Shown here: positions 1,375 to 22,189 of the stretch, piece by piece
How the letters are laid out: the number at the start of each line of letters is the position of its first letter
Position numbering within the stretch: position 1 is the first letter of the stretch
Assembly (NCBI GenBank): GCA_041661045.1
Contig: JBAZVE010000001.1
Span: 990,001-1,022,000 of the forward strand
Source of the DNA: Candidatus Saccharimonadota bacterium
Lineage (GTDB): Bacteria; Patescibacteriota; Gracilibacteria; UBA1369; 2-02-FULL-48-14
DNA: 32,000 bases
Direction of reading: 5' to 3'
Notes under the pieces: model-generated
Seen by the model: only the letters and a program-made list of their open reading frames with translations
Databases searched by the model: none
Told to the model about the DNA's origin: nothing
Made by a program: the position numbers and the translations under genes

Positions 1375-1420
1375 TCCCTCGGCCCTGCCCGAGTCTTACT
1401 GTTTGTCTAACCCACTATTT

Positions 1421-3099: not shown

Positions 3100-3100
3100 C

Positions 3101-6209
<3,109 letters not shown>

Positions 6210-6282
6210 GCCCCAAAAGTCTAGGGCTTAAAAAAGAATCAGAAAAATGGTGCTGACGAATGAATCATAAACCTTCAGAAAG

Positions 6283-6312
6283 AAAAAGGAGAGATCATGA
6301 TCTCTCCTTTTT
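6283..6312 (-). terminator. Rho-independent terminator candidate downstream of the 1090-aa surface-protein gene
   Basis: Perfect 30-bp palindrome aaaaaggagagatcatgatctctccttttt, 32 nt past the stop at 6344. In the minus sense the hairpin is followed by tttttctttct. The A-run/T-run flanks could make it bidirectional. Confidence 0.7.
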
Positions 6313-6343
6313 CGCTTCAAGATGAATGAGTCCGCACGATTTT

Positions 6344-9300
6344 CTAGTCCTCCCAATCTTCTGAAGCGATGCCCCAGGCGAGGGAGACGCGGTAGGCGAT
6401 GGCCATGGCCTCGCTACGGAGAATATCGTTGTAAGGTTTGAAGCTGTCGTCGTCATAGCCTTCAATCACGCGGACATTGTCTTCTTGAGCGGTATCCACG
6501 AGGGTTCCGTAGGCAATGGCCAAGGCGTAGGCGAAGTAGTCTTCGTTATCCACATCTTCAAAGATGTCTTCAACATCGTAATCGTAGATGCTTTGGTCCG
6601 CGAAACGAACGGCGTAGAGAATGGCATCGGCACGAGTGATGGGTTCGTTGGGGTAGAAGTAATATCCATTGTCCCGTGTACGAATCACATCTTCATCTTC
6701 AGCAATGTTGAGGTAGGGGTAGAACCAATCGTTGGCAGAAACATCGTAGAAGCCGGTCTTGTCTTCCCACCCATCGTCCACATCATGACCAAAGATCAAA
6801 ACCATCACTTTGATCCATTCGGCACGGGTGATTTCGTCTGCCGGAACAAAAGTGGTTGAAGTGCGGCCTTGAATGATGCTGGCTTGGTAAAGGCGGCAGA
6901 CCAAATCTGCAAACCATTCTCCATTGGTGTCGGTGAAAGGATCGGTACATCGGTAATTTCTATTTTTGATCACTTCTCCAGAATTCACATTGGTCACTGA
7001 AACATCACCGGGGTTGACCCCGTTGTAGGCCGCATCGGTTGAGATGGCGGCGGCGGTGATGATCGAGTAAGCCACATCCGCATCATCGGAACTGTCGGCA
7101 ACTCCGGTGACCGTAATGGTTTGAGGAGTGGACCAAGTTGCGGTGGTGAATGTGACTGAACTTGGAGATACGGTTCCTTCCGTTGTATCTGATGAGGAAA
7201 GTCCAACGCTGACATCCGCTGTGGGCTGCTTGCTGAGCACCATGGTGAATGTGGCGGTTCCACCGGCTTCCGTCGTGTTGCCGGAGATGGTGGAAACGGA
7301 AATGGTACCGGTTTCAGTTGGCGTTGTTGGGGTTGTTGGGCTGGTGTCGTTGTCGGTGATGGTCGCGGTGAGATTGGGTACCGCGGTACTCGCGTCGGTG
7401 TCGTAAATGCTGAGAGAGTGGGTGAGCACTCCGGAATGAGTCCCTTCCACACTGCTGTCGTCCACAGCCGTTACGGTGACCATTTGAGGTACGCTCCAGT
7501 TTGTTGCATCAAAGATGAGCGAACTTGGAGTGACCGTCAATTGAGCGTCGGGGGTGATCTTGAAGCCCATGGTTGCGGAGGGAGCCGCAGTGAGTGCAAC
7601 CGTGTAGGAATCGGTGGCTCCACCTTCTGTTACAGCTGTAGTTCCGGAAGATTCAACAATGTTGGCTTCCACTGGTGTTGTGGTTCCTCCACCGGTGAGG
7701 GTGAACTTGCTTGCGCAAGTGGGATACTCCAGCATTTCAACGGTTATGGTGTCTCCCGATACGCCTCCACTGAAGAGACCACTCAATATGGTGCTGTTTT
7801 CGGTGAGGGTGATGAGATAAGGATTCTCCGGTCCGGTGGAGTACAAGTACTCACTGGTGCCGTCGGAATGAATCAAATTGCTTCCACTAAAACCTCCGGC
7901 TCCATCGGTTTTGATGGAAAGGGTGGCGCTGAGTGCAGTCATGCTTGTTGCGGCATCGTAGTCAAAGGTTGTCATCACACTCATATCAAAACTGGCCGTT
8001 GGAGTGTTGGCAGGAATTTCGTAAGAACTGGGAGTGACGGTAAGTCCTGTACAAGCCAGTGCGTCGGGTTCGGTGGGATCGGCTTGGGTGATAGTGAAGG
8101 ATTCGCTGCAATTTGTTTCTTCTCCATCCACTGAAACAGTGATGGTCTCTCCGACACTCCCTCCAGTAAAGTGCATGGTTACAATGCGAGGTTCCGTTAA
8201 GTTGAGGAGATAAGGATTGGAAAGAGTTATGCCATCTTCACTGAAGAAACTGCTTCCACTTCCTCCGCTGGATTGGAATCTTAGGGTTCCCGTCCAACCC
8301 TCTACACTAGTGCCATCCGTTGGAATGACTATTTCTGTGAGGGTGAATGCTTTCAAGTTGTCTGAAAGCGAGGGAATGCTCGCCGTGACCGCGGTGGTAC
8401 TGATCCCAACGGTGATATCGAAATCGGCAGTGGTGTCCTCTGCCGCCATTTCATAGGAGCTGGGTGAAACCGCGAGGCCTGAACAGGCACTTTCGAGTGC
8501 GGTGATACTGAGGCTGAGCGCGGCGTCGGCAGAAGCACGGGCTTGAGTGGCATAATTTCGCGCGGCTTCCGCAGCTCTGTTGGCTTCTTCCATCAATACG
8601 CCTTCTTCGTTACGAAGTGTGTTCAGTTCGCTGTAGGCAGCGAGGGCATCGGTGTACGCCGCGTGGCTCGTATCCACCATTGTACTCATGGTTTGGTACT
8701 GAAGGAGGAGCTCCTCGTAATCCTCAATGTGCTCCTCAAGATATGCCTCAACTTCTGGGGTCCACTCTGCCGTGCCTATCGTGCCCCATGTTGCCCAGAT
8801 CGTGTCCCAATCCACCAAGTTTTCTACTGTACATTCGTTGTCGAACCAAGCTTCTGGGTCCTCCCCTCCTGGGATTACTCCTGAGGTGGTGGTATCACAA
8901 GCAGGAAAAGAGGATTCATAGACTTCAAGACAAGCCGTGCTATTGTAGTCTCCTCTTTCCATTGCGCCGCTTGCATTGTCTCTGTCTGTATTTGCACAGT
9001 CTACAAAATCTACAGAATTTGTTTGAGTGTATTCCACCCTCCACTCTCCCCAAAAGCTACACAATGAATGATAGGTATAGCCCCCCCATCCAGGGTACAG
9101 AGTATAGGTGCAGTTTGACATCAATAGCTCGTTGTAAAACCCATAATAGCTGTGTTCAAGATCCACCTTGGCAAAGTCTCTATTGTAGATGGCTTCAAGG
9201 TAGGAGGCTTGATAGCCAGAGAGGGCTGCTTCGGCGGCATCTGCGGCGGCTTCTGTTGCATTGTGAAATTCTTCCGCTTGGACGCGGAGCGCTTCGGCAG

Positions 9301-9616
9301 TGGTGGCAGCGGCTTCGGCGGCCTCGGCGGCGGCTACGGCATCCGCTTGCGCGGCTGCGAGTGCGGTAGCATCGTTGGCGTCGGCGGCGACGGTGGCCTC
9401 CCCGGCCGCTTCCATTGCCGCTACGGAAGCGTCTAACGCATCTTGCCTGTACGCTTCGACGGAATTGACTGTTTCTTCAAAATCTGAGGTGCCCGGCAAA
9501 GAGCCTCCCCATCTTCCCTTCAACCAATCGCTTTGCACAAGGGCAAAGGCGAGGGCGCCGAGGAGGACGAGGGCGAGGACGATAAGGATAAAAGGTTTAC
9601 GGGATTTATTGGGCAT
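6344..9616 (-). CDS. Large secreted/cell-surface protein with C-terminal SLH triplet (S-layer or adhesin candidate)
   Basis: 1090-aa ORF with this layout: N-terminal hydrophobic anchor/signal (aa 9-27); Ala-rich helical segments; Cys/Trp-rich region (aa ~155-290, 8 Cys); two copies of a Cys-bracketed ~120-135-aa module (aa 378-511 and 522-642); two beta-sandwich adhesin-type repeats (aa ~648-757 and 769-878, pattern TEGG..F.V.L...P...V...TFT..NW..PQ.(I/V)TVT.V.D); three SLH-like repeats (aa ~889-1090, e.g. FTDTNGEWFADLVCRLYQASIIQGRTSTTFVPADEITRAEWIKVM). Confidence 0.9.
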   Translation of the reverse strand: MPNKSRKPFILIVLALVLLGALAFALVQSDWLKGRWGGSLPGTSDFEETVNSVEAYRQDALDASVAAMEAAGEATVAADANDATALAAAQADAVAAAEAAEAAATTAEALRVQAEEFHNATEAAADAAEAALSGYQASYLEAIYNRDFAKVDLEHSYYGFYNELLMSNCTYTLYPGWGGYTYHSLCSFWGEWRVEYTQTNSVDFVDCANTDRDNASGAMERGDYNSTACLEVYESSFPACDTTTSGVIPGGEDPEAWFDNECTVENLVDWDTIWATWGTIGTAEWTPEVEAYLEEHIEDYEELLLQYQTMSTMVDTSHAAYTDALAAYSELNTLRNEEGVLMEEANRAAEAARNYATQARASADAALSLSITALESACSGLAVSPSSYEMAAEDTTADFDITVGISTTAVTASIPSLSDNLKAFTLTEIVIPTDGTSVEGWTGTLRFQSSGGSGSSFFSEDGITLSNPYLLNLTEPRIVTMHFTGGSVGETITVSVDGEETNCSESFTITQADPTEPDALACTGLTVTPSSYEIPANTPTASFDMSVMTTFDYDAATSMTALSATLSIKTDGAGGFSGSNLIHSDGTSEYLYSTGPENPYLITLTENSTILSGLFSGGVSGDTITVEMLEYPTCASKFTLTGGGTTTPVEANIVESSGTTAVTEGGATDSYTVALTAAPSATMGFKITPDAQLTVTPSSLIFDATNWSVPQMVTVTAVDDSSVEGTHSGVLTHSLSIYDTDASTAVPNLTATITDNDTSPTTPTTPTETGTISVSTISGNTTEAGGTATFTMVLSKQPTADVSVGLSSSDTTEGTVSPSSVTFTTATWSTPQTITVTGVADSSDDADVAYSIITAAAISTDAAYNGVNPGDVSVTNVNSGEVIKNRNYRCTDPFTDTNGEWFADLVCRLYQASIIQGRTSTTFVPADEITRAEWIKVMVLIFGHDVDDGWEDKTGFYDVSANDWFYPYLNIAEDEDVIRTRDNGYYFYPNEPITRADAILYAVRFADQSIYDYDVEDIFEDVDNEDYFAYALAIAYGTLVDTAQEDNVRVIEGYDDDSFKPYNDILRSEAMAIAYRVSLAWGIASEDWED

Positions 9617-11393
9617 ACCAAGCGAGGTAAAATCTTAAAGCGAGCGCCACTGCTTCTGAGCGAGCAATGGACTTTGTGGCACCGGCAGTGCCATTAGAAT
9701 ATCCTTCAAAAACACGAGTCGTCCCTTCATCAGGGTCTTCCACCATCTTGTTGTAGCCAATAATAATGGCATAGGTGTAGGGGTCGGAGGCTTTGAGGTC
9801 TGAGAAGGGGATGTCTTCTTCCTCCCAGTCCCACAAAGTTTGCTCCGCGGTTCGCACCATGTAAAGCATAAAGTCCCCACGAGTGATGTACGCATTTGGA
9901 TTTGCGTATCCTCCGTTATCTATCACTCGAACAACGCCGGCTTCTTGAGCGAGTACATACCATGGGTGAAACCACTCGCTTGATTTCACATCAATAAACT
10001 CTTCCGGGAGGCCTTCGGCATCTTCCTCCGTTTTTCCTGAGAGGAGCATCAATATTTTGATGGCTTCAGCGCGGGTGAGGTCTCCCTCAGGCACAAAACT
10101 ATTGGCATCTCGGCCATTGACGATTCCGGCTTGATAGAGTCGGCACACATTGCTGTAGGACCAGTGTGTTGAATCCACATCGGTAAAGGGTTCGGAGCAT
10201 ACAGCTTCTTTGCTTGTTAAAATGTCATTTATTGTTGTTGTAGTCTCGGTTGTCGTCGTGGTGGTGCTGGATTCAGTGGTGGTGCTAGTGGTGGATGAGC
10301 CGGAGCTTGAAGAACTGGAGGTGCTGTCGGAGGAACTGCTGCCATCGCTTGTTGTTGTGGTGGGCTCCGTTGTGGTTGTGGTAGGTTCGGTTGTGGTAGT
10401 GGTGCCTGTTGTAGTGCTTGAACCGGGGTAACTGGTGGCGTCGAGAGGGTCTGTTCCTGAATCGACTTCGGTTCCGTCTGAGTAAGTGTCCCCGTCGGTG
10501 TCACTGTTGTTGGGGTCTGTTACGGTATCCACTTCTTCGGCATCGGTGAGGCCATCGCCATCCGTGTCTAGGTTTGGATCAGGCTCGGTTGGAGCGGGTT
10601 CGGTTGGTTCTGTTGGTTCTGTTGGAGCCGCCTCGGTTACTTGAGTGAGTGTGAATTTGGTGCTGCATGAAGGATCTTCATTGATGGAAACAGTGATATT
10701 TTCTCCTTCTTTGCCTCCACTGAAGTTTATGTTGGCTACGGAGCCGGATTGAGTGAGGGCTACTTTATAAGGGTTGATGGGGCCGCTTTCCGTGAAGCTT
10801 GTTACGCTTCCATCGGGGTTGCTGAGGCTGTTCCCATGAAAAGCTCCGGCTCCATCGGATTCAAAAACGAGTGTGGCTTCAAAAGCCTCACTATCAGTCC
10901 AAGCATCCAGATCAAAAGTTGTAAGGGCGGTGAGGTCGAAATTGACCTCCGCTGTATTTGCAGGAATCTCATAAGAAGCCGGACTTACGGTGAGTGCGGT
11001 ACACACGATGCTGCTCGTAGTGCTTGTGCTCGTTGTTGTACTGCTTGTTGCGCTACGATCCAGAGGATCGCTACCGCTGCTGACTTCTTCACCATCGTTC
11101 ACGCCGTCTCCATCACTGTCCGGGTTGAGGGGGTCTGTCCCAAATCCTGTAACTTCCGCACCATCCATTAAGCCGTCGTCGTCGGAGTCGGAGTCGTTGG
11201 GGTCTGTCCCCAAATCCCCTTCATCGCTTTTGCGAAGACCATCGCCATCGTCATCGATGCCGGCGGATCCTTCGGTCTCGGTTCCTCCTTCACCTGTTCC
11301 AAATCTTCCCTTAAGAAGACTGGTTTGAGTGAGGGCGAAAACAATTCCGCCGAGTACTGTTAGGGCAATGAAAAGGTAGATGATTTTTTTCAT
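9606..11393 (-). CDS. Secreted/cell-surface protein with TSP3-type Ca-binding repeats, a shared Cys-bracketed module, a Thr/Ser-rich linker and a C-terminal SLH triplet; paralog of the downstream gene
   Basis: 595-aa ORF whose stop overlaps the start of the 1090-aa gene by 11 nt. It contains: DxDxDGxxD repeats (aa 45-112 and 272-320); the module CTALTVSPASYEIPAN...CSTKFTLTQ (aa 131-251); PT and T/S-rich linkers (aa 256-271 and 325-388); SLH repeats (aa ~399-595, FTDVDSTHWSYSNVCRLYQAGIVNGRDANSFVPEGDLTRAEAIKIL). Confidence 0.9.
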   Translation of the reverse strand: MKKIIYLFIALTVLGGIVFALTQTSLLKGRFGTGEGGTETEGSAGIDDDGDGLRKSDEGDLGTDPNDSDSDDDGLMDGAEVTGFGTDPLNPDSDGDGVNDGEEVSSGSDPLDRSATSSTTTSTSTTSSIVCTALTVSPASYEIPANTAEVNFDLTALTTFDLDAWTDSEAFEATLVFESDGAGAFHGNSLSNPDGSVTSFTESGPINPYKVALTQSGSVANINFSGGKEGENITVSINEDPSCSTKFTLTQVTEAAPTEPTEPTEPAPTEPDPNLDTDGDGLTDAEEVDTVTDPNNSDTDGDTYSDGTEVDSGTDPLDATSYPGSSTTTGTTTTTEPTTTTTEPTTTTSDGSSSSDSTSSSSSSGSSTTSTTTESSTTTTTTETTTTINDILTSKEAVCSEPFTDVDSTHWSYSNVCRLYQAGIVNGRDANSFVPEGDLTRAEAIKILMLLSGKTEEDAEGLPEEFIDVKSSEWFHPWYVLAQEAGVVRVIDNGGYANPNAYITRGDFMLYMVRTAEQTLWDWEEEDIPFSDLKASDPYTYAIIIGYNKMVEDPDEGTTRVFEGYSNGTAGATKSIARSEAVALALRFYLAWYAQ

Positions 11394-11432: not shown

Positions 11433-12761
11433 CTAGATTTTAGCAATCCTTTCATAGACGCTTTTTTCGTAGGCGTCGAGATCCGGGATCATGAGGCGAG
11501 CCATTCCGGACTGCATTGCGGCTTCCGCCACGGCGCGGGCCACGGTTGGAACCACGCGGATGTCGAATTGTTTGGGGATGATGTAACCCGGGATGATGCC
11601 TTCTTTGGCTTGGAAGTGACCTTTTTGAGCTTCTTCGGGATAAGCGCTTTCTAAGATTGCACGGACTTCATCGGGTGGCGTTTTTTTGACTAGGGAAGCG
11701 AGGGCCTTTGCGGCAGCCAGCTTCATGGCTTGATTTACAGATCGGCAACGAGTGTCCAGGGCTCCTCTAAAAATACCGGGGAAACCCAGGGAGTTGTTCA
11801 CTTGATTTGGATAATCGCTTCGTCCGGTTCCAATGACTTTTACTCCGGCTTCAATGGCGTCTTCCGGCATGATCTCCGGGGTGGGGTTGGCCACGGCAAA
11901 AACAATGGCATCGGGATTCATTGTTTTTGCTACCTCTTTGCTGAGGAGACCGGCACGGGAGACTCCGATGAAAATATCGGCTCCCTGAACCGTTTCTCCC
12001 AAAGATTTTGCTTCGGAGACTTTGGCGAATTTGCGTTTTTGACTGTTCAAGTCTTCTCGAGCTTCCGTGATGAGGCCCTTGCTGTCACACAGGTATACTT
12101 TTTGCAGATCCGCACCCATGTCCAAAAGAAGGTTGGCGCAGGAGATCCCTGCGGCACCGGCACCGCTGAAAACAATCTTCACGGCATCGATTTTTTTGCC
12201 CACCGCTTCCAGTGCATTGAGTATGCCGGCGGTGATCACAATACTGGTGCCTTCTTGATCGTCGTGAAAGACGGGAATATCCATTTCTGCATCCAGCTTT
12301 TTTTGAAGGTCGAAGCAGAGCGGGGCCTTGATGTCTTCCAGAATGATGGCACCAAAGGTGGGTTCCAACAATTTGATGGCGGAAATGAGCTCGTTTTGGC
12401 GAGCTTCATTATGGTCGATTTTACCTCCCAAACAGAGCGGCGTCCCGTTGATATCGGCGAATCTTTTGAGAAGTACCACCTTGCCCTCCATTACGGGGAG
12501 AGCGGCTTCGGGTCCCACTTCTCCAAGTCCCAAAACGGCGGTTCCATCACTCACCACGGCGACAGAGTTCCCCTTACCGGTGTAGTCGAAAACGGCGTCT
12601 TTATTTTTATAAATCTCCAGGCTCGGCAGTGCGACTCCGGGGGTGTAGGCCATGGAAAGATCTCTGGCGCTTTCGCAGGCTTTTGTTGGCTTGGTCGCAA
12701 TTTTTCCCGGGACGGGATTCCGATGGTAATCGAGGACTTCTTCGTTGGTGATGGCAGTCAT
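11433..12761 (-). CDS. NAD(P)-dependent malic enzyme (short form, no phosphotransacetylase-like domain)
   Basis: 442-aa ORF. N-terminus DYHRNPVPGKIATKPTKACESARDLSMAYTPGVALP, then VAVVSDGTAVLGLGEVGPEAALPVMEGK and the Rossmann motif FSGAGAAGISCANLL. Confidence 0.93.
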   Translation of the reverse strand: MTAITNEEVLDYHRNPVPGKIATKPTKACESARDLSMAYTPGVALPSLEIYKNKDAVFDYTGKGNSVAVVSDGTAVLGLGEVGPEAALPVMEGKVVLLKRFADINGTPLCLGGKIDHNEARQNELISAIKLLEPTFGAIILEDIKAPLCFDLQKKLDAEMDIPVFHDDQEGTSIVITAGILNALEAVGKKIDAVKIVFSGAGAAGISCANLLLDMGADLQKVYLCDSKGLITEAREDLNSQKRKFAKVSEAKSLGETVQGADIFIGVSRAGLLSKEVAKTMNPDAIVFAVANPTPEIMPEDAIEAGVKVIGTGRSDYPNQVNNSLGFPGIFRGALDTRCRSVNQAMKLAAAKALASLVKKTPPDEVRAILESAYPEEAQKGHFQAKEGIIPGYIIPKQFDIRVVPTVARAVAEAAMQSGMARLMIPDLDAYEKSVYERIAKI

Positions 12762-12781: not shown

Positions 12782-12879
12782 GGATGCCGCTTACGCGGCG
12801 TTCTTGCTTAGCAGGCCGTTGGCCCGCTTAGGATGTTGCTTGCGCAACCTTATTGCTTAGCAGGCCGATCGGCCTGCAT
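12782..12879 (-). repeat. Tandem pair of a ~49-bp two-hairpin intergenic element (units 12782-12830 and 12831-12879)
   Basis: Both units start GGATG, then carry hairpin 1, then TTGCTTAGCAGGCCG, then hairpin 2. Hairpin 1 is gccgc-ttac-gcggc (12786-12799) in unit 1 and gttgc-ttgc-gcaac (12835-12848) in unit 2. Hairpin 2 is ggcc-gtt-ggcc (12814-12824) in unit 1 and the 18-nt palindrome gcaggccgatcggcctgc (12860-12877) in unit 2. Minus-sense loops of hairpin 1 read GTAA and GCAA (GNRA). Unit 2 overlaps the last 9 codons and stop of purA. Confidence 0.75.
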
Positions 12880-14277
12880 GGAAATGTACTGATCCCGGTT
12901 TGGTCCCACGGAAATTCCGCGGATACGGCAACCGGCTTGAGTTTCAATTTTTTGGAGCAGTGTCAGCAAGTTTTTTGGCAACTCTTCTTTTGTGCGCATA
13001 CCGGTGAGGTCTTCGGTAAAACTTTCTTCCCATGAATAGATGGGGCGAACACGGGCATAGGCTGCGGTGGAGGCTGGGATGTAATCGATGTTTTTCCCCT
13101 CCAACTCATAGCCAACCACCAATGGAATCTTTCCTTCTTTGGTTTTTGAATAGAATTGAAGCAAGTCACACTTGGTGATCACTATTTCTTCCACTCCGTT
13201 GGATTTTACGGCGTGGCTCAATTGAACCAAATCCAAAATTCCAATGCGTCGTGGCCTTCCGGTTACGGTTCCATATTCTCTGGAAAGCACTCGAAAGGCT
13301 TTTCCCACTTCAAAATCATCTTCTGACTGTAAGAGTGTTTCCACGGGGAGGATGGATTCGGTTTCACGGTTGTTGATGGAATCTCCATTTTCATTCACTG
13401 CCATGCAGTAATCCTCGGATTTTTTGCCACCAAATTCCGAGACAAAGGGGCCGTGTCCCACTCTGGACATCAAAGCCTTTACCACACCGATGGTTTTGTG
13501 ATGAAAGTTTGGGGGGAGGTCTCCGCCCGTGTAGGCGGCGGGGGCGCAGGTTGCGCTGGAGGTTACAAACGGCACAGAACCTTTATTGACATCCAGCATG
13601 TAGGATTGAGCTCCTTCAAAAAGCACCTTGGCTCCGACTTCCGCTTTTTTATAAAGATAAAGCACATCTTCTTCAAAAAAATCTTTCACTTTTTCCAGGG
13701 CGGCGCGCATTTTTGTGAAATGAGAGGGGAGGTCAAAACTTGGGAAGTGATAGAGCGAGTCCGCATAATCATAGTTGGCTTGCATCAGCGAGAAGCAGTT
13801 TTCTTCATTGTCCAAAAGATCGCACAATCTTAAATTTACGGTGTTTTTGCCATTCATTCTCAGGGCTCGGTCGGCGTAAGCCGGGCCGATTCCGTTCTTG
13901 GTCGTGCCCACTTCTTTTCCCAAAATGGTGTCCATCAAAATGTGATGCGGCTGCACCAGCCCGGCCTGAGGGGAGAAACGGAGGCGGTTCTTTAAAATAA
14001 TTCCTTGAGCTTCGATGTTTGTGATTTCTTCCGCCAGTTTGATGATGTCGATGACGCAGCCGGAGCCCACATACAGATCCATGCTCTCATACAAAACACC
14101 TGATGGAACTTGCCTCAGTGCCAGTCTCAGACCCTTTGCTTCTATGGTGTGTCCGGCGTTGGCGCCACCGTTGAACCGCGCCACCACGGTGTAGTCGCTG
14201 GCCATGTCGTCGATCACGCGGGCTTTGCCCTCATCTCCATATTGTAAACCGATGACGATGTCTGAGTAACCGTTCAT
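12850..14277 (-). CDS. purA: Adenylosuccinate synthetase (divergent, long form)
   Basis: 475-aa ORF. P-loop-like YGDEGKARVIDD, then FNGGANAGHTI, GTTKNGIGPAYADR, FEGAQSYMLDVNKGSVPFVTSS and GTVTGRPRRIG. These blocks are collinear with E. coli PurA. Confidence 0.9.
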   Translation of the reverse strand: MNGYSDIVIGLQYGDEGKARVIDDMASDYTVVARFNGGANAGHTIEAKGLRLALRQVPSGVLYESMDLYVGSGCVIDIIKLAEEITNIEAQGIILKNRLRFSPQAGLVQPHHILMDTILGKEVGTTKNGIGPAYADRALRMNGKNTVNLRLCDLLDNEENCFSLMQANYDYADSLYHFPSFDLPSHFTKMRAALEKVKDFFEEDVLYLYKKAEVGAKVLFEGAQSYMLDVNKGSVPFVTSSATCAPAAYTGGDLPPNFHHKTIGVVKALMSRVGHGPFVSEFGGKKSEDYCMAVNENGDSINNRETESILPVETLLQSEDDFEVGKAFRVLSREYGTVTGRPRRIGILDLVQLSHAVKSNGVEEIVITKCDLLQFYSKTKEGKIPLVVGYELEGKNIDYIPASTAAYARVRPIYSWEESFTEDLTGMRTKEELPKNLLTLLQKIETQAGCRIRGISVGPNRDQYISMQADRPAKQ

Positions 14278-14320: not shown

Positions 14321-14941
14321 TTAATACAGTTCTTTCCAAATGCGTTCGGAGAGGACGGAGGCTTCGCCACGGGTCGAGTTGTTGTGAGGACGAAAGGATC
14401 CGTCTCCGTAACCTTCAATTATTCCGTATTCAATGCCCACCATTACGGCGGCGGCGAACCAATCGTCTCCGCTCACATCCGAGAACCGGCTTTCAAAATT
14501 GTAAACCTCGTAATCCGTGATTCCTGCGACTTGGATTGCCATGCTCAAGGCTTCCGCTCGAGTGATGGGTGCATTGGGGTGAAAGCTGCCGTCGTTGTAC
14601 CCGCTTACAAAACCTTTTGATCTGGCAAAAGTGACGAATGGGTAGTACCACTCTCCCGGAGCAATGTCCGTGAAGCTTGCGCTCTGCACCGAATAAACGG
14701 TGTAGCCCAAGTTGACCAGGGAGATTTTTAAGAATTCCGCTCGAGTGACCTCGGTATCGGGCGAAAAATTCCGTTCGGAATATCCTTCCACCACGCCATT
14801 TTGGTAGAGAAAACAAATTTCATCTTCGGCGAAGTGGCCCGCGATATCGATGAAAGGATGTTCACAACCCGAAACAGTCAACTCTGCGGAAGCAGTGGGA
14901 ATGAGAAGGGTGAAGAGAAGAGTGGAGAGGAGTTTTTTCAT
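14321..14941 (-). CDS. Small secreted SLH-only protein (signal peptide plus three SLH repeats)
   Basis: The ORF track extends to 15166 across the trpS 3' end. I trimmed it to the ATG at 14941 (MKKLLSTLLFTLLIPTASA|ELT, a signal-peptide-like start). Repeats: FIDIAGHFAEDEICFLYQNGVVEGYSERNFSPDTEVTRAEFLKI, FTDIAPGEWYYPFVTFARSKGFVSGYNDGSFHPNAPITRAEALSM and FSDVSGDDWFAAAVMVGIEYGIIEGYGDGSFRPHNNSTRGEASVL. Confidence 0.85.
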   Translation of the reverse strand: MKKLLSTLLFTLLIPTASAELTVSGCEHPFIDIAGHFAEDEICFLYQNGVVEGYSERNFSPDTEVTRAEFLKISLVNLGYTVYSVQSASFTDIAPGEWYYPFVTFARSKGFVSGYNDGSFHPNAPITRAEALSMAIQVAGITDYEVYNFESRFSDVSGDDWFAAAVMVGIEYGIIEGYGDGSFRPHNNSTRGEASVLSERIWKELY

Positions 14942-14948
14942 GGGTGGA

Positions 14949-14962
14949 GGATGTTGCTTGCG
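14949..14962 (-). repeat. 14-bp remnant of the two-hairpin intergenic element
   Basis: ggatgttgcttgcg is identical to the first 14 nt of the copies at 12831 and 17925. The 3' arm of hairpin 1 is missing. It lies between the trpS stop (14967) and the SLH-only gene start (14941). Confidence 0.6.
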
Positions 14963-14966
14963 ATAT

Positions 14967-15929
14967 TTATAGACCGATCCTTTCGTAGACCGTGGCCATG
15001 GTTTCTCGAGCCAGTTTTGCCGCTTTTTTTGCACCCATATCCATGATTTCTTCGAGCTCTTTGGAGTTTTCAAGTTTCTCTCGGCGAACCTTTGCTTCCG
15101 CAAAAAAGCCGATGAGTTTTTCGAAGAGAGCTTGTTTCGCGCGGCCATAACCGAAGCCCCCTGCACGATAGTTTGCCTTCAGGTCCTCCAGCTCTTTTGA
15201 ACTAGAAAATTGTTCATATAGAGAAAGGATGAGGTCGTTTTCCAGCGGCATGGGATCCTTGAGATCCACGCTGGCGGTTTTGATGCTCATGACTTGTTTT
15301 TTGATCACCGCTTCGTCATCAAAAATACTGATGGTGTTGTTGTAGCTCTTGCTCATTTTTTGACCATCCAAGCCTGGTACGGTGGCCACTTCTTTTTCAA
15401 TTTTGGGCTCCGGAAGTTTAAAAGTTTCTCCATAAATATGATTGAATTTCTCGGCAATATCTCTGGCAATTTCCACATGTTGGCGTTGATCTTGGCCCAC
15501 GGGGACCCAATCGGCTTGGTAAATCAAAATATCTGCAGCCATTAAGACTGGATAAGTGAAGAGTCCAACGGTCATTTCTCGATTTCCTTTTTCTAGCGCA
15601 TCTTTCCAAGCATGTGCTCTTTCTAAGAGTCCGTGTGGAGCAATGCTGGATAAAATCCATGTAAGTTCAGCGTGTTCGGGCACGGCACTTTGGTAGAAGA
15701 ACGAGACTTTTTCGGGATCTAGACCCAGGGCTAAATAATCCAAAACAACTCCTCGGCGGTAGCCTCGCATTTCTTCAGCGTTTCTTACCGTGGTGAGCGC
15801 ATGGTAGTCCGCCACAAAATAGAGACATTCGTGGTTTTCTTCTTGTAGGGCGATGTGTTGTTTGATCGCACCCAAGTAGTTTCCGATGTGGGGTTTTCCC
15901 GTTGGCTTGATTCCGGATAAAATGCGCAT
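14967..15929 (-). CDS. trpS: Tryptophanyl-tRNA synthetase
   Basis: The ORF track extends to 16157 inside priA. I trimmed it to the ATG at 15929 (MRILSGIKPTGKPHIGNYLGAIKQ, carrying the HIGH-type motif). KMSKS is present (DGQKMSKSYNN). 320 aa. Confidence 0.95.
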   Translation of the reverse strand: MRILSGIKPTGKPHIGNYLGAIKQHIALQEENHECLYFVADYHALTTVRNAEEMRGYRRGVVLDYLALGLDPEKVSFFYQSAVPEHAELTWILSSIAPHGLLERAHAWKDALEKGNREMTVGLFTYPVLMAADILIYQADWVPVGQDQRQHVEIARDIAEKFNHIYGETFKLPEPKIEKEVATVPGLDGQKMSKSYNNTISIFDDEAVIKKQVMSIKTASVDLKDPMPLENDLILSLYEQFSSSKELEDLKANYRAGGFGYGRAKQALFEKLIGFFAEAKVRREKLENSKELEEIMDMGAKKAAKLARETMATVYERIGL

Positions 15930-15936
15930 GTCTTTT

Positions 15937-17904
15937 TTATACGCTGATTTGAGGATCCGCGTCAATTCGCCAGTTCGTGAGACTCTCCTCTGGAAGATCT
16001 TTGAGTAGTGCTGCCGGGTTTTGGCCTTGAAGGAGCACATTCCATTGGTACTGTCCTTTGATTCTTGGGAGTAAGGCGGGGGCGGCATAAATTTGGATCT
16101 GGAGCGGGAGGGATTCGGCTTTTGCCTTGAGTTCTCCCTCCAGTTTTTTTGCGGCATTCTCGCAGAAACTTTGGTCTTTGTTGGAGATCATGAGTTTGAG
16201 GATTTTGCCAAATGGAGGCATGGTCGACTCCTTTCTTGCACTAATTTCTTGTTCATAAAACCCTTTGTAATCGTGAGTTTGACTATAAAATATACTCGGA
16301 TGGTCCGGATTGTAGGTCTGTATCAACACTTCTCCTTGTTTTTCTCTTCTTCCTGCGCGACCGGCCACTTGGGTTAGCAGTTGGAAAATGCGCTCTGAAG
16401 TGCGGAAATCCGGGATATGGAGGCCGAGATCTGCCAAAATCACTCCCACCAAGCTCACATTCGGCACATCTAAACCTTTCCCAATCATTTGGGTCCCAAT
16501 GAGAATATCGATTTCACGATTGTGCAGGCGGTCGTGCAGATCACTGAAGCTGTCCTTTTTCCCCATGGTGTCCCTGTCGGCCCTTTGAATGCGAGCCAGT
16601 GGAAAGAGTTTTCTCAATTCAGTTTCCACTTTTTCGGTGCCTACTCCAATGGTTTTGATGCGAGAGCCTTTGCACTTTGGACAGAGTTCGGGGAAGCTTT
16701 CCATTTGTCCGCAGTGATGACAGAGTAGCGTTTCTTTTTTAAATTTGCGGGCGTGATGTGTGAGAGGAAGATCACAATTGGGGCACTCCAGTACGAAACC
16801 GCAATCTCTACACAGCACTGAAGAGGAGGTTCCACGACGGTTGAGAAAGAGGATGATCTGCTCTTTTTGCTCCAATGTTGATCTAATTTTTTGTTCAAGC
16901 ACCTCGCTGAATATGGAAAAATTGCGAGCTTTGAGTTCTTCACGCATGTCGATGATTTGAACGGTTGGGAGCGGAGTCCCGGCAATCCGTTCCTCGAGCT
17001 CAAAGAGGGCAAACTCTCCGTTTTGTGCTTTAAAATAGGTCTCGATGCTTGGCGTTGCAGAGCCAAAAACCACTTGGGCGCCCGTGAGCTCCGCACATTT
17101 TAGGGCGGTTTCCCTGGCGTGATATCGCGGACTTTGATCTTGCTTATAGGACCATTCGTGTTCTTCATCCATAATGATGAGTCCCAGTTTTTTAAAGGGA
17201 GAAAAGAGAGCGCTGCGAGAACCCAAGACCAAATGAATTTTTCCGGATTGAATCTCACGCCAGACTTTTGCTCGTTTCCCTTCGCTGATTCGACTGTGGA
17301 TCACGGTCACTTCGGGGAAGGCTGCTTCAAAATAATGCAAAAGCTGTGGAGTGAGGGAGATTTCCGGAACCAGGAGTAAACACTGCTCGCCCTTTTGAAT
17401 AAAATTTTTGATCAAGTGCTTGTATATTTCAGTTTTTCCGGAACCGGTGATGCCTCGAATTAAGGAAACTTTGGGCTTTTCTTCCAGAATGGTTTTCACG
17501 ATTTTTCCTTGTTCCGGGGTCAGGGTGTGGATCACTTCCTCCTTTATTTTTTGGACTTCAGGCTTGGATTTCCGTTCTTTTATTTGTTTTCTAAAGATGT
17601 TTTTTGGCAGCATCAAGCGGAATGCATCGTATTTTGAGCAAAAATAGTATTCAGCTATCCACTCGGCCAGTTCGATTTGCCAATTTTGCAGTAAACCTTC
17701 TTCGTTCAGCAGTCCTAAAATATTTTTTGTGGCGAACTCCGGTTTGTGGGCATGGAGCCGTAAAACCAGGCCGGCTTTTTCACCTCTTTGAAAGGGCACC
17801 AAGACTCCATCCCCAATTTTTACATTCAATTCTGCAGGTACTCCATAAGTGAGCGCCGTTTGTTTTCGAGCGAAAGCGTGTTGTATTAAAATTTCTGCGT
17901 ACAT
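15937..17904 (-). CDS. priA: Primosomal replication-restart helicase PriA
   Basis: 655-aa ORF. Walker A GITGSGKTEIY, DEEH box (IIMDEEHEWSYKQ), and a Cys-rich zinc-binding insert CRDCGFVLECPNCDLPLTHH...CHHCG...CPKCKG. Confidence 0.95.
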   Translation of the reverse strand: MYAEILIQHAFARKQTALTYGVPAELNVKIGDGVLVPFQRGEKAGLVLRLHAHKPEFATKNILGLLNEEGLLQNWQIELAEWIAEYYFCSKYDAFRLMLPKNIFRKQIKERKSKPEVQKIKEEVIHTLTPEQGKIVKTILEEKPKVSLIRGITGSGKTEIYKHLIKNFIQKGEQCLLLVPEISLTPQLLHYFEAAFPEVTVIHSRISEGKRAKVWREIQSGKIHLVLGSRSALFSPFKKLGLIIMDEEHEWSYKQDQSPRYHARETALKCAELTGAQVVFGSATPSIETYFKAQNGEFALFELEERIAGTPLPTVQIIDMREELKARNFSIFSEVLEQKIRSTLEQKEQIILFLNRRGTSSSVLCRDCGFVLECPNCDLPLTHHARKFKKETLLCHHCGQMESFPELCPKCKGSRIKTIGVGTEKVETELRKLFPLARIQRADRDTMGKKDSFSDLHDRLHNREIDILIGTQMIGKGLDVPNVSLVGVILADLGLHIPDFRTSERIFQLLTQVAGRAGRREKQGEVLIQTYNPDHPSIFYSQTHDYKGFYEQEISARKESTMPPFGKILKLMISNKDQSFCENAAKKLEGELKAKAESLPLQIQIYAAPALLPRIKGQYQWNVLLQGQNPAALLKDLPEESLTNWRIDADPQISV

Positions 17905-17924: not shown

Positions 17925-17977
17925 GGATGTTGCTTGCGCAACCTTATTGCTTAGCCTCCGTTTCACTCCGGCTTAGC
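17925..17977 (-). repeat. Dispersed copy of the two-hairpin intergenic element in the priA / metalloprotease divergent region
   Basis: The 31 nt ggatgttgcttgcgcaaccttattgcttagc (17925-17955) are identical to 12831-12861. They are followed by 15 nt and a second GCTTAGC (17971-17977). Hairpin 1 is at 17929-17942. Confidence 0.75.
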
Positions 17978-18023
17978 ATAAACCATTTTACAAAAAGCCC
18001 CAAACCTGCTTCACTATTTTCTG

Positions 18024-20234
18024 ATGACATTTCGCGCGCTGCTTTCCACTGCCGCCTGCTTGAACCTGTTTTGGGTGCTTCCCGCTTTTGCGGTTTCTTT
18101 CGAGTCGGACATAGAAAGTGGTTTGATCAAACGGAATGCGATTCAAAGTGAGCACTTCCAATTTGAATTTTCAGACATCATTGGGAATCAAGCGGACAGT
18201 GACGGGGATGGGGTCTCTGACATTATTGAACTTATTGCGGAGTCGGCTGAATACAGTTGGGATATTTTGGTGGAAGAAATGAATTATGAAGAGCCTATTG
18301 AAACGGGGGAACCTATCATTGTAATTTTGGACGACAATTATGAGTATCTCAGCTCCGGGGCCTTGGGAATCACCAGTGTTTTGACCAATGATCAACCTTA
18401 CATTGCCATTGATCCTTGGATGAGCCCGGATTATTTGGTGGTCACGATGGGGCATGAGTTTTACCATGCCATTCAATTTGGATACGACTTCAATTTTGCT
18501 TACACCTATCAAGGTATCAACTTTGCAGAAGCCACTGCCAGTTGGGCGGAGGATGTTCTGTTTGATACGGTGAATGATTACGGCCTTTATATCCCGGACT
18601 TTCTGAGTTATGTAGATTATTCCATCTTCGCCTCCATTGTGCCCACAGGAAGTTTGTATGAATATGGAATGAATATTTGGCCTCGCTTTTTAAGTGAGTA
18701 TTACGACAATGGCATTGTGAAGGATATTTGGGAAACTTATTTTGACTCCAATATCAGTTATGACAGTGATCTTAAATTGTATGAGGCGGTTTCGGCCGTT
18801 CTGGATGATGAGGGGGATGATTTGCCGACTGTTTTTCAGGAATTCACTTTGTGGAATTTGAGTTTGGAAGAGTATGAAGAAGGCAGCCTTTACCCCTCTG
18901 TTTTGATTCTGGAAGGGGAGGAAAGCCAGGAGTATACTTTGAGCGATGAGAACTATGCACCAGCCCTGTATGGAACCAACTATTTGTACTTTGAAAACAG
19001 TACCGGACAGAATGAATTCATGTTTCATATCATCAAGCCGGAGGGCGTGAGCTTTGCGGTTTCTTTGGTTCCTTATGATGGAGAGAGCTATGACCTTTCC
19101 AAGGCGAGAACACAGATTATTGAAGGGGACGAAGCAATGGAAGCCTTCTTAAGCCTGGAAAACATCGGGGCTCAGGATGGAGTGGTGGCGGTGATTTCCA
19201 GCCTGGAAATTGAATTTGAGAGTGGGAACAACTGGGAGGTTTTTGACCAAGGCTACCTGTATTACTATTTGGGCAATTACGGGCTTAGTGAAGATGCCTT
19301 TCAGGCTTTGATGGATGGAGCTCAAGAGGAAGTGGAAACGGATCAAGGTGAGAAGGAGGGAGAGGATATTGAGGATGCCTCTGATGCTCGCAGTGAAGGA
19401 GCTTTGACCCTTTCCATCTTAAGTTTTGATGACAACTCTGCCACCTTTTCTTGGAACAGGGTTGCGGATGAGGACATCGACAGTTACGAGCTCAATTACG
19501 GAACAAACAGTGGGTCTTATTCCAAATCTGTGGATATTGAGAACGAATACACCACTTTTGCGACGGTGACGCATTTGGATGAAGGAGAAACTTATTATTT
19601 CTCCCTTTCTGCTCTGGATGAGGATAATGACGAAATTGGGGACCCCAGTTCGGAACTAGTGGTGACGCCCATGGAGTGGATTTTTGAAGATGTTTCTTAC
19701 ATGGATATTCACTTTGATGCCATTGAGGCCTTGGTGGAAATTGGGATTTTTGAAGGCTACAGTGATGGAAGCTTTGGTCCCGAGAATGAGATCAACCGAG
19801 CGGAACTCCTCAAGATTTTGGTGGAGGGTCGTGGTATTGAAGTGGATCCATCCACAAACAAGAACTGTTTTCCTGATGTCCGTGAAGATTGGTATGCCAA
19901 GTATGTGTGTTACGCCAAGAATCAAGGTTGGATTCAAGGGTATAGCGATGGCAGCTTTAAGCCTGCGGATCCTGTGAACAAGGTGGAGGCGCTCAAAATG
20001 CTCTTTGAAGTGTATGAGGTAGAATTGAGTCAGGATGCTGTTGTGGCGAATCTCAAATATCCCGATTTGGATGAAAACGCCTGGTATGCCGTTTATGTAT
20101 GGAAGGCTTCTGCCCTTGGCGTTTTAGAAGAACTCACCACCGCAAACTTCAACCCCGATGCCGATCGTACTCGTGGCGAGATGGCTGAAGAACTTTATCG
20201 TTATTTAGTGGTGGACGGGGCGCTTCGAGAGTAG
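18024..20234 (+). CDS. Secreted HExxH zinc metalloprotease candidate with FN3 domain and C-terminal SLH triplet
   Basis: 736-aa ORF. Signal peptide MTFRALLSTAACLNLFWVLPAFA|VS. HEFYH at 18453-18467, with a downstream Glu in GINFAEATASWAED about 21 residues after the second His (gluzincin-like spacing). FN3-like segment aa ~459-549 (FSWNRV...YELNYG...YYFSLSALD). SLH repeats aa ~553-730 (FEDVSYMDIHFDAIEALVEIGIFEGYSDGSFGPENEINRAELLKIL). Confidence 0.85.
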   Translation: MTFRALLSTAACLNLFWVLPAFAVSFESDIESGLIKRNAIQSEHFQFEFSDIIGNQADSDGDGVSDIIELIAESAEYSWDILVEEMNYEEPIETGEPIIVILDDNYEYLSSGALGITSVLTNDQPYIAIDPWMSPDYLVVTMGHEFYHAIQFGYDFNFAYTYQGINFAEATASWAEDVLFDTVNDYGLYIPDFLSYVDYSIFASIVPTGSLYEYGMNIWPRFLSEYYDNGIVKDIWETYFDSNISYDSDLKLYEAVSAVLDDEGDDLPTVFQEFTLWNLSLEEYEEGSLYPSVLILEGEESQEYTLSDENYAPALYGTNYLYFENSTGQNEFMFHIIKPEGVSFAVSLVPYDGESYDLSKARTQIIEGDEAMEAFLSLENIGAQDGVVAVISSLEIEFESGNNWEVFDQGYLYYYLGNYGLSEDAFQALMDGAQEEVETDQGEKEGEDIEDASDARSEGALTLSILSFDDNSATFSWNRVADEDIDSYELNYGTNSGSYSKSVDIENEYTTFATVTHLDEGETYYFSLSALDEDNDEIGDPSSELVVTPMEWIFEDVSYMDIHFDAIEALVEIGIFEGYSDGSFGPENEINRAELLKILVEGRGIEVDPSTNKNCFPDVREDWYAKYVCYAKNQGWIQGYSDGSFKPADPVNKVEALKMLFEVYEVELSQDAVVANLKYPDLDENAWYAVYVWKASALGVLEELTTANFNPDADRTRGEMAEELYRYLVVDGALRE

Positions 20235-21357
20235 AGAGTTCCTCTAAGACAAAGTTGTTGAGTATGGCTTCGGCAAGTCTGATGGAGAGACATGGAGGCA
20301 CCGCGTTTCCAATTTGTAAATTTCTTTGGCTCCTCGACCCATAAAATTGATATTCATCCGGGAAGCATTGTATCCTCGCCCCCTCTCTTGTGGTGAGTGG
20401 CCTGGGGGCTTTGGGATGTATACATCGAGAAGAGGAAGGGGTGCTTAAATTTCTTGTGATGGTGGTTGAAGGTTTTTTCCACCACAGACGAGAGTAGGTA
20501 TTTTTAAAGCCGGATTTTGGCCTTAGGTTCTTTGGTAAATTTTCCGGGCTTCCTCCGTCGGGCAAGAGCTGCATCAGTTTAACCAGGTTTGGATTGTTTT
20601 TTGGGGCGTTATGATCTTGTAGTTTCTCTGGTGCATTTTTACGCATTATTTTTTGAAACTCATTTTTGGGTTCAGAAGCGTACTCAAAACTTTCTTCCCC
20701 GGAATTTATAAAGGGTAAATCTCCGATGGCGTCTTCCAGTGTCAGGTAGGGGCTGAGCAGACCACTAAAAAGGTTGGAGTCGGTTTCCGGGTTGTAATGA
20801 CTTGGGCTGGGATATTCAAAATTTGTTTTGAGTTTTGAGCCCACCAAGATGATGCGTTCTCTGATTTGTGGAGCTCCGTAATCCGCTGCGTTCAGTAGTT
20901 TGCATTGGACTTTATACCCTAGGGATTCAAAAAGAGTGATGATGTTCCCCAGTAATTCTCCATTTTGCATGGAGGTGAGGCCTCTTACATTTTCAAAAAG
21001 AAAAAACTTTGGTTTGAACTCGTCCAAAACCCTAAAATATTCTTTGAAGAGTTCCCCTCTTGGATCGTTGCTCGCTCGTTTCCCAACCGTTGAGTAGGCT
21101 TGGCATGGAGGTCCTCCAATAATGAGATCTATCTCTTCCGGATCAATTCCCAGATCCCTGCTCACTTTTTTTGCATTAAACTCTTTTACATCTTCATTGT
21201 AGACCTTTGTTTTAGGGTGATTTAAAGAGTAAGCCTTTGCCATTTGGGGAAGAATTTCGTTGGCCGCAACAATTTCAAAGCGATCGTCTTTTGCAAAACC
21301 ATAACTTAAGCCTCCAACTCCACAGAATAGATCGATGATTTTAAGGGTTTTTTTCAT
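20149..21357 (-). CDS. DNA (cytosine-5)-methyltransferase
   Basis: 402-aa ORF. Motif I IIDLFCGVGGLSYGF, motif IV GGPPCQAYS, motif VI FLFENVRGL, motif VIII QIRERIILVG, motif IX-X RPLTTREGARIQCFPDEYQF...QIGNAVPP. The last ~30 aa are a tail encoded antisense to the metalloprotease 3' end. Confidence 0.93.
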   Translation of the reverse strand: MKKTLKIIDLFCGVGGLSYGFAKDDRFEIVAANEILPQMAKAYSLNHPKTKVYNEDVKEFNAKKVSRDLGIDPEEIDLIIGGPPCQAYSTVGKRASNDPRGELFKEYFRVLDEFKPKFFLFENVRGLTSMQNGELLGNIITLFESLGYKVQCKLLNAADYGAPQIRERIILVGSKLKTNFEYPSPSHYNPETDSNLFSGLLSPYLTLEDAIGDLPFINSGEESFEYASEPKNEFQKIMRKNAPEKLQDHNAPKNNPNLVKLMQLLPDGGSPENLPKNLRPKSGFKNTYSRLWWKKPSTTITRNLSTPSSSRCIHPKAPRPLTTREGARIQCFPDEYQFYGSRSQRNLQIGNAVPPCLSIRLAEAILNNFVLEELSTLEAPRPPLNNDKVLQPSRHEYDRHRG

Positions 21358-22156: not shown

Positions 22157-22189
22157 GGTCTCTTTTTTTAAGCTGCACTTCGTGCAGTA

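Follow-up and report, generated by a model that had tools for sequence, protein, structure and literature searches.

The window analysed here is a stretch of 32,000 nt from contig JBAZVE010000001.1 of a Candidatus Saccharimonadota assembly (positions 990,001 to 1,022,000), our view of a genome of 1.32 Mb, and the positions given below are those of the window. It is gene-dense, has a G+C content of ~48%, and contains genes for many SLH-domain proteins. At the junction of purA and the malic enzyme gene that follows it lie two adjacent units of an element of about 49 nt, each with two hairpins, and the nature of this element is the subject of this study. All genes flanking the pair are on the minus strand, and we refer to this strand as the gene sense. 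The nearest homologs of the PurA protein were labelled Candidatus Peregrinibacteria, Gracilibacteria, and Patescibacteria group, the closest being 62% identical.

A first-pass annotation had described the pair from the sequence, and both units are present as it had laid them out, arranged head-to-tail on the plus strand with a period of 49 nt (Table 1). In gene sense, unit 2 comes first and reads AUGCAGGCCGAUCGGCCUGC-UAAGCAAUAAG-GUUGC GCAA GCAAC-AUCC; unit 1 reads UAAGCGGGCC-AACGGCCUGC-UAAGCAAGAAC-GCCGC GUAA GCGGC-AUCC. We also agree with the annotation that unit 2 provides the end of purA: the last nine codons (M-Q-A-D-R-P-A-K-Q) and the TAA stop are within it, and its hairpin 1 starts 2 nt past this stop. 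The 3' end of unit 1 is 20 nt from the ATG of the malic enzyme gene.

Table 1. Positions of the element copies in the window, their hairpins, and the adjoining genes
Feature	Position	Strand	Description
Malic enzyme gene	11433..12761	-	Directly downstream of the unit pair; Pfam PF00390 and PF03949
Unit 1 (downstream copy)	12782..12830	-	49 nt, UAAGCGGGCCAACGGCCUGCUAAGCAAGAACGCCGCGUAAGCGGCAUCC; covariance model R1 score 51.6 bits
Hairpin 1 of unit 1	12786..12799	-	GCCGC-GUAA-GCGGC; plus strand GCCGC-TTAC-GCGGC
Hairpin 2 of unit 1	12810..12828	-	AGCGGGCC-AAC-GGCCUGCU; 7-8 pairs, one G·U in gene sense only
Unit 2 (gene-sense upstream copy)	12831..12879	-	49 nt, AUGCAGGCCGAUCGGCCUGCUAAGCAAUAAGGUUGCGCAAGCAACAUCC; covariance model R1 score 54.6 bits
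Hairpin 1 of unit 2	12835..12848	-	GUUGC-GCAA-GCAAC; plus strand GTTGC-TTGC-GCAAC
purA (adenylosuccinate synthetase)	12850..14277	-	Pfam PF00709, E 1.9e-114
purA stop codon TAA	12850..12852	-	Inside the conserved linker GCUAAGCAAUAAGG of unit 2
Hairpin 2 of unit 2	12860..12877	-	GCAGGCC-GAUC-GGCCUGC, 18-nt perfect palindrome, within the purA coding sequence
Truncated copy	14949..14962	-	CGCAAGCAACAUCC; loop, 3' arm, and AUCC, no 5' arm
Third full copy	17925..17975	-	51 nt, in the divergent spacer between priA and an fn3/SLH gene; hairpin 1 at 17929-17942

The similarity of the two units exceeds that expected by chance. They match at 34-35 of 49 positions without gaps and at 38 of 48 with one gap, and the best pair found at offsets of 20-120 in 100 composition-preserving shuffles of the window averaged 28.6 and reached at most 31. 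A repeat search of the window reported the pair as 45 nt at 78% identity, and the 15-mer TTGCTTAGCAGGCCG occurs exactly twice. Tandem Repeats Finder did not report the pair even at a score of 30, and a standard repeat scan would therefore miss it.

As we read every intergenic spacer of the window, we identified a third full copy. Its core (17925-17955) matches unit 2 at 31 of 31 positions across the linker, hairpin 1, and AUCC (blastn E 2.7e-8); its hairpin 2 belongs to another type, with AGCC...GGCU around GGAGUGAAACGGA. The AUCC of this copy is 20 nt from the ATG of priA (15937-17904, minus strand), and a mini open reading frame (ORF) of 11 codons, MLSRSETEAKQ-stop, starts from an ATG at 17979. 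The duplicated 31-mer may also break k-mer assemblies: the Logan contig L001 (SRR18595301) ends at 2534 (~12833 of the window), inside hairpin 1 of unit 2 and in the 31-mer repeated at 17925-17955, as expected if a k=31 assembly is broken. The truncated copy is located between the stop codon of a class I (Trp/Tyr-type) tRNA synthetase (14967) and the likely ATG of an SLH protein (14941), 7 nt upstream of the latter. The mechanically called ORFs at 14321-15166 and 14967-16157 share 200 nt here, and the SLH protein almost certainly starts at ATG 14941 (MKKLLSTLLF..., signal-peptide-like), not at GTG 15166.

Outside the window, we scanned JGI metagenome contigs with the pattern GCTAAGCAANAANGNNGCGNAAGCNNCATCC, in which 24 bases are fixed and the four variable stem positions and the loop N are free. 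Exactly two contigs matched (Ga0265292_1000436 and Ga0265296_1001912), giving the loci L009 and L010. Both have hairpin 1 stems not seen in the window, GUGGC/GCCAC in L009 and GUAGC/GCUAC in L010, the arms of which are likewise complementary. As the search pattern prescribed the loop G.AA, the linker, and AUCC of these two copies, independent evidence comes from their stems, hairpin 2, flanks, and genomic context. A pair lacking further copies, which the first-pass annotation had named as grounds for abandoning its view, is thus not what we see, with copies at 17925-17975 and 14949-14962 and in L009 and L010.

More distant searches returned no further members. We built the covariance model R1 from the 33-nt core of five copies; in ~190 kb of fetched DNA from relatives and the two other host genomes it found no new copies, so the family is not a dense one and is missing from the closest relatives sampled. 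A scan of a genome-contig collection with the 18-base core CGGCCTGCTAAGCAANAANG, which is not shared by the third copy, gave seven single chance-level matches in unrelated taxa and none from a related genome, and the source genome may be missing from that collection. A scan of viral contigs gave zero matches, and blastn found no match to the element in phage and plasmid records. The structured RNA envisaged in the first-pass annotation has no counterpart among the Rfam 15 families: only a tRNA reached the gathering threshold, and the best permissive hit had 17 bits against thresholds of 40-80. Within the gene of a 1090-residue SLH protein, the palindrome ACTTGC-GCAA-GCAAGT (7705-7720) resembles hairpin 1, has neither the linker nor the AUCC flank, and, with 10.3 bits in R1, is probably a chance match.

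In gene sense, the element runs from a pyrimidine-rich flank (TCC) through (N)AAGC, hairpin 2, the linker UAAGCAA(U/G)AA(G/C), and hairpin 1 to AUCC. The consensus of hairpin 2 has the pairs A-U, G-C, and C-G followed by a variable interior. The two hairpins measure 14 nt and 18-22 nt in every full copy, and in the tandem pair both are part of the minimum-free-energy fold, with z-scores of -3.1 and -3.6 for the two units. The consensus of hairpin 1 is G-NN-GC / GNAA / GC-N'N'-C. The change of CC to TT matched by GG to AA, noted between the units in the first-pass annotation, is compensatory, and the gene-sense loops are GUAA and GCAA as it had read them. Its description of hairpin 2 of unit 1 needs amending: the core GGCC-GTT-GGCC stands, and the true extent is (A)GCGGGCC-AAC-GGCCUGC(U), with 7-8 pairs and one G·U. 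When a 1-nt deletion in the loop is allowed, this hairpin is homologous to that of unit 2.

The further copies extend the pattern, and the claim that the hairpins are kept while the sequence drifts is borne out. Hairpin 1 occurs with the stems GCCGC, GUUGC, GUGGC, and GUAGC, every one fully paired, so that 25 of the 25 cells pair across five copies. Two pairs have changed on both sides, one of them taking the forms UA, AU, CG, and GC and the other taking two forms. The covariation score was matched by 1 of 500 column shuffles, and slid registers paired 16-52% of the cells. In hairpin 2, the base is A-U, G-C, C-G in four of five copies, unit 2 having a U·U mismatch at the A-U position, and the fourth pair is A-U, G·U, C-G, C-G, and A-U across the five. 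Both hairpins thus stay paired through compensatory changes. The hairpin 2 regions are ~80% identical between L009 and L010 and ~90% identical between L010 and the third window copy. The argument that GNRA loops mark the minus strand as the folding one is weaker than it looks, as only GUAA versus GCAA is independent and the G.AA of the outside copies was fixed by the pattern.

A peptide is not what is conserved, as had already been argued in the first-pass annotation: neither strand of the copies encodes a conserved peptide, and the reading frame used by the element varies among copies. A composite query joining all open translations of the element gave 0 of 8000 candidates at E <= 10. We also rejected a small plus-strand ORF from the ATG in GGATG, the residues of which are not conserved and which in L010 has a stop at codon 2.

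The genomic contexts of the copies indicate insertion. Apart from the purA junction, the element lies upstream of priA, 7 nt before an SLH protein gene, inside the coding sequence of a hydrolase, and at the end of an unrelated protein. The first-pass annotation had suggested that it could be an intercistronic element of the junction of purA and the malic enzyme gene, a view that is not supported: L015 and L017 keep the two genes next to each other, with spacers of 15 nt and 1 nt and no R1 match, and copies are dispersed elsewhere. The varied contexts and the lack of junction copies in relatives identify the element as a dispersed, inserted repeat, with copies scattered over unrelated sites of one genome and present in at least two more. 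It is absent both from the orthologous purA/malic enzyme junction of relatives and from 11 hydrolase homologs.

At the purA locus, the insertion would have altered the end of the protein. PurA homologs end 2-5 residues past GPxRxQY[IV] and the window protein 10 residues past it, and its C-terminal tail has been replaced or extended by unit 2. When 12782-12879 is removed in silico, the sequence reads ...CAG TAC ATT TCC TCT CTA ACC GTT AAA GCA CCA TGA: without these 98 nt, purA ends in ...QYISSLTVKAP and its TGA overlaps the ATG of the malic enzyme gene (ATGA junction). The restored overlap is tidy but not conclusive, since the right frame would arise by accident about one time in three. With the point of insertion marked by a slash, the reconstructed empty sites are ...ATTTCC/TCTCTAACC... 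for purA and ...TATTCC/ATATGC... for the hydrolase.

The copies in the two other genomes show further ways in which a host gene accommodates the element. In L009, from a metagenome-assembled genome labelled Candidatus Gracilibacteria, it forms a 54-nt in-frame insert of 18 residues, AAAKRMLSKNVAQATSIC, in a YdeN/RBBP9-type serine hydrolase, and this insert is missing from 11 of 11 aligned homologs. L014 has an empty hydrolase site beside the same neighbouring sigma-factor gene, which at 71% protein identity is too diverged to fix the boundary of the element. In L010, a 497-residue protein ends in ...SRSETEAKQ-TAA within the element, and the next gene starts 7 nt past AUCC. The element's GCU AAG CAA UAA gives AKQ-stop to two unrelated proteins, PurA and the L010 protein, as well as to the mini-ORF of the third copy. 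Copies persist solely at sites where the harm is slight, namely spacers, extreme gene 3' ends where their own UAA serves as the stop, and, in frame, a tolerant protein loop.

At the ends of the element, four of the five copies have TCC 0-1 nt 5' of the first (N)AAGC/AUGC, and AUCC is the last tetranucleotide of every copy. The presence of TCC on both sides in these four fits a 3-bp target duplication and an insertion adjacent to (A/T)TCC equally well. Insertion beside a preferred (A/T)TCC that is recreated at the 3' end of the element would explain the head-to-tail pair. Terminal inverted repeats are lacking: the end (N)AAGCNN... does not recur in inverted form at the other end, ...NNCAUCC. 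All copies are in the sense of the local gene, which, given the few independent sites, is only suggestive. The GC skew over 32 kb is confounded by coding-strand bias, and an argument from the replication strand was not used. A rule placing the element exactly 20 nt from the ATG was rejected: it is true for the malic enzyme gene and priA, and the truncated copy and L010 are at 7 nt.

We consider it fairly likely that the purA pair represents two adjacent insertions of a ~50-nt non-coding interspersed repeat that occurs in a lineage of the Candidate Phyla Radiation (CPR) from the neighbourhood of Gracilibacteria and Peregrinibacteria. The repeat is probably a new family of miniature, non-autonomous two-hairpin elements and, as a mobile repeat, of a familiar kind. 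Such an element would be moved, or would once have been moved, by an enzyme acting in trans on its folded single strand, as HUH tyrosine transposases act on REPs and IS200/IS605 ends; it would enter next to TCC, and the AUCC at its end would recreate the target. In the REP systems of Escherichia coli, terminating ribosomes can stall at a stable hairpin 2 nt past a stop codon, and such a hairpin can shield the upstream mRNA against 3' exonucleases. Any effects on the purA/malic enzyme mRNA, such as a barrier to 3' exonucleases, ribosome stalling, or the uncoupling of genes that once overlapped, would then be a by-product of the insertion, and a role of the element at the RNA level as stabiliser, processing site, or insulator is possible as a secondary effect.

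Several observations weigh against this interpretation. The density of copies is low, with three full and one partial copy in 32 kb, one each in ~27 kb and ~12 kb of the other genomes, and none further in the ~190 kb of fetched loci. We saw no transposase, whether RAYT / Y1 HUH, TnpA, or any other kind, in the window and the fetched loci. Hairpins 1 and 2 are unlike each other in sequence, in contrast to the ends of IS608, and the stems vary within one genome, a variation that would be hard to accommodate for a single enzyme that reads sequence. In the third copy, AUGC takes the place of the TCC flank. There is no empty and filled pair of near-identical strains, the nearest empty sites being at 58-71% protein identity. 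Finally, removal of the L010 copy from TCC to AUCC (9907-9934) lets the 497-residue ORF run in frame into the ATG of a 699-residue DUF4012 gene; the two proteins both look complete, each with an N-terminal membrane segment, and the fusion is probably a chance match of frames, which leaves the boundaries unsettled.

The main rival to an inserted repeat is a structured RNA selected by the host, a portable module at gene boundaries whose two hairpins and A-rich linker would be carried on operon mRNAs and whose mobility is secondary or ancient. It would act as a 3'-exonuclease barrier for the upstream cistron, an RNase processing site, or an insulator that holds the start region of the following gene free of structure where Shine-Dalgarno sites are not used. 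We regard this as unlikely, while noting that it is compatible with a mobile origin. The covariation in both hairpins is what such an RNA would show, and the details of the fold point to the gene sense: the GNAA loops are closed by C-G there, the G·U in hairpin 2 of unit 1 is valid only there, and every copy is so oriented. In four of the five copies, full or partial, the distance from the end of the element to a start codon downstream is 7 or 20 nt, and none of the 22 assigned ORF starts in the window has a Shine-Dalgarno site upstream. The hairpin 2 regions of the third copy and L010 are also ~90% identical, although we found no close relative of the window organism (closest PurA 62%). On the other hand, the element is missing at the same junction in relatives, one copy is within a coding sequence, and another has no upstream gene on its own strand. 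The spacing to the ATG is variable (7, 20, 20, and 7 nt, plus a 49-nt repeat), and the intergenic regions here are so short that any insertion into a spacer falls near an ATG. The conservation of loop and linker in L009 and L010 was imposed by the search pattern, and a match to an Rfam family is lacking.

A bolder form of the same idea would make the element a portable, host-beneficial RNA "punctuation" cassette for CPR operons, bringing its own UAA stop and a stable GNRA-capped hairpin and leaving a start codon 7-20 nt downstream; we think this rather improbable. If true, the cassette would end, separate, or split genes and would organise mRNA processing or translation re-initiation without Shine-Dalgarno sites, and mobility would be the means of delivery, not the point. 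As an observation on the window itself, its 22 assigned ORF starts lack a Shine-Dalgarno-like GGAGG in the 30 nt upstream and are mostly C-rich at positions -3 to -1 (..CC ATG, ..CCC ATG), and these contexts suggest initiation independent of Shine-Dalgarno sites in this organism.

A further alternative is an element that acts on the plus strand, where a U-rich tail comes after hairpin 1, and that resembles a terminator as the pneumococcal SPRITE repeat does, the insertions of which survive only when their polar orientation opposes local transcription. Such a polarity would explain the orientation bias, and we consider it improbable. A terminator consensus scan found GTTGCTTGCGCAAC followed by CTTATTGCTT as terminator-like on the plus strand at 12835-12848 and 17929-17942. 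Unit 1 and L009 are G-type copies, with AAGAAC as their linker, and their plus-strand GGAUG pairs with CGUUC via two G·U to give a stem of 9 pairs, GGAUGNNGC / GCNNCGUUC, with UUGCUU after it. In both, the folding energies favour the antisense over the sense strand (-25.3 versus -23.5 kcal/mol in unit 1 and -18.4 versus -14.6 kcal/mol in L009). In the T-type copies (linker AAUAAG), however, it is the sense fold that is more stable, and on the plus strand the G·U in hairpin 2 of unit 1 becomes a C·A mismatch. The stems have only 5-9 pairs and the tail is interrupted (UUAUUGCUU). Far longer palindromes bordered by runs of A and T are present in the window. They are in the 239-nt spacer from the CTP synthase gene to the gene of the 1090-residue SLH protein, where we found two long inverted repeats, at 6142-6209 and 6282-6313. 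One has 28-nt arms with 93% complementarity, and the other is a perfect 32-nt palindrome, GAAAAAGGAGAGATCA/TGATCTCTCCTTTTTC, which is flanked by A and T runs and resembles a bidirectional terminator; these repeats are very different from the 5-bp hairpins of the element. Of the functions raised in the first-pass annotation, that of a canonical rho-independent terminator, here for purA, did not hold up: the gene-sense sequence after hairpin 1 is AUCCUAAGC or AUCCUCUCU, there is no U-tract after either hairpin, and the terminator-like matches of the consensus scan are on the opposite strand only.

The chances are very small that the element, repeated before several genes, is a DNA site recognised by a protein specific for its sequence, for example an operator bound by a regulator, a recombinase site, or a partition site. 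Its invariant flanks GCTAAGCAA and CATCC, the AAGC motif found three times per unit, and its position just upstream of start codons would suit such a site. The half-sites of the inverted repeats, however, change together to keep their pairing, and recognition of sequence by a protein would not be expected to produce such changes; the flanking genes (malic enzyme, priA, SLH protein, and DUF4012 protein) are functionally unrelated, and one copy is inside a coding sequence. A one-off local tandem duplication of the purA 3' end, suggested by just two adjacent units at the locus that fall below the threshold of Tandem Repeats Finder, is hardly credible and is ruled out by the copies at 17925-17975, 14949-14962, and in two other genomes. 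An integron attC site, a CRISPR repeat, a tmRNA tag, domain 5 of a group II intron, a hammerhead or pistol ribozyme, and a mimic of the 16S rRNA 3' end were all discarded, with no defining feature and no Rfam match.

We made some other observations in the window and in the fetched loci. The strongest short-period repeat of the window is a 21-nt tandem repeat at 10349-10404 (2.7 copies, 82% matches) in the gene of a TSP3-repeat/SLH protein (9606-11393). A C-5 cytosine DNA methyltransferase gene (20149-21357) adjoins an ORF of 283 residues without a family match (21368-22219), and the two may be a restriction-modification pair; the called TTG start of this ORF overlaps a tRNA gene (22193-22266) and is probably miscalled. 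In L009, the region 2194-7563 (3991-9342 in L011) encodes a ~1790-residue alpha-2-macroglobulin-like protein with Hint / homing-endonuclease-type domains, which suggests an intein. In L010, two adjacent PurP-like genes (DUF1246 and DUF1297) are beside purH at 1206-3365 of this CPR-like contig, and we take them to be of the archaeal-type FAICAR synthetase.

If the element is an inserted repeat as we favour, its interest lies in its hosts. CPR genomes are very small and tightly packed, and here an element would rewrite gene ends, separate genes that once overlapped, and insert in frame into an enzyme; miniature mobile DNA would thus shape even such genomes. It would also shift annotated stop codons, and its compact, covarying motif of RNA or single-stranded DNA could serve as a handle for finding the enzyme or a function at the RNA level. 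A targeted literature search found no description of short interspersed repeats in CPR bacteria. The finding is unsurprising in kind, as comparable families exist in many other bacteria.

Among these, REPs and REPINs are alike in being short hairpin-forming repeats, single or clustered, with compensatory drift of the stems within a genome. REPs are found mostly between co-directional genes, downstream of coding regions and sometimes within genes, and transcripts contain many of them, with possible effects on the stability or translation of the mRNA (PMC3733652, PMC3116915, PMC6006769). In size, the element agrees with the 20-40 bp palindromic stem-loop of REPs, its hairpins being at or below the lower limit. 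The two REP superfamilies are defined by a GTAG/GT[AG]G or CGTC tag (PMC3733652, PMC6006769), whereas the feet of the element are AA(U/G)AA(G/C) and (N)A and neither tag is present; GTAG occurs only inside the variable stem of L010 in the five-copy alignment. The cluster is head-to-tail where a REPIN is an inverted doublet, and the element differs from REPs by its two unlike hairpins and the conserved single-stranded linker. High copy number is typical of REPs, as is a RAYT / Y1 HUH transposase gene in the same genome that copies usually flank; the window and the fetched loci showed no RAYT gene. The phyla for which tagged REPs are listed do not include that of the CPR host.

PATEs are minimal, non-autonomous derivatives of IS200/IS605 that consist of the left and right subterminal hairpins only. 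The element is like such mini-elements in having a hairpin near each end (hairpin 2 at the 5' end and hairpin 1 at the 3' end) and no terminal inverted repeats. Cleavage of IS200/IS605 and REP elements is defined by their subterminal hairpins together with a target tetranucleotide in the flank and an invariable one at the end (PMC6006769), and by analogy with that mechanism, the TCC left flank, the final AUCC, the one-strand logic, and the consistent orientation of the element may be related features. In contrast, at ~50 nt the element is far smaller, its hairpins of 14 and 18-22 nt are dissimilar, no TnpA gene was found in the window or fetched loci, and its TCC could equally be a 3-bp target-site duplication. 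Classical MITEs have terminal inverted repeats that match those of a parent insertion sequence, and the element lacks such repeats. The pneumococcal repeats BOX, RUP, and SPRITE share with it a modular, tandem-capable, and intergenic nature and stable predicted RNA structures, SPRITE resembling a rho-independent terminator (PMC10969869); there is no sequence similarity, and size and module plan are different, in a comparison that did not test these families directly.

The closest parallels to the way in which the element meets genes come from small palindromic repeats inserted in frame or at gene ends, as in the RPEs of Rickettsia, the QMITEs of Coxiella, and some REPs (PMC10969869, PMC5896051, PMC3733652). 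RPEs are ~100-150 bp long with a conserved peptide, whereas the element is 49-51 nt and has none; only one in-frame case of the element is seen, and there is no sequence similarity to RPEs or QMITEs. As with these families, however, the hosts have small genomes in which palindromic repeats are tolerated in frame or at gene 3' ends (PMC10969869, PMC5896051), and the in-frame insert in the L009 hydrolase and the C-terminal tails that the element gives to PurA and the L010 protein are insertions of the RPE type.

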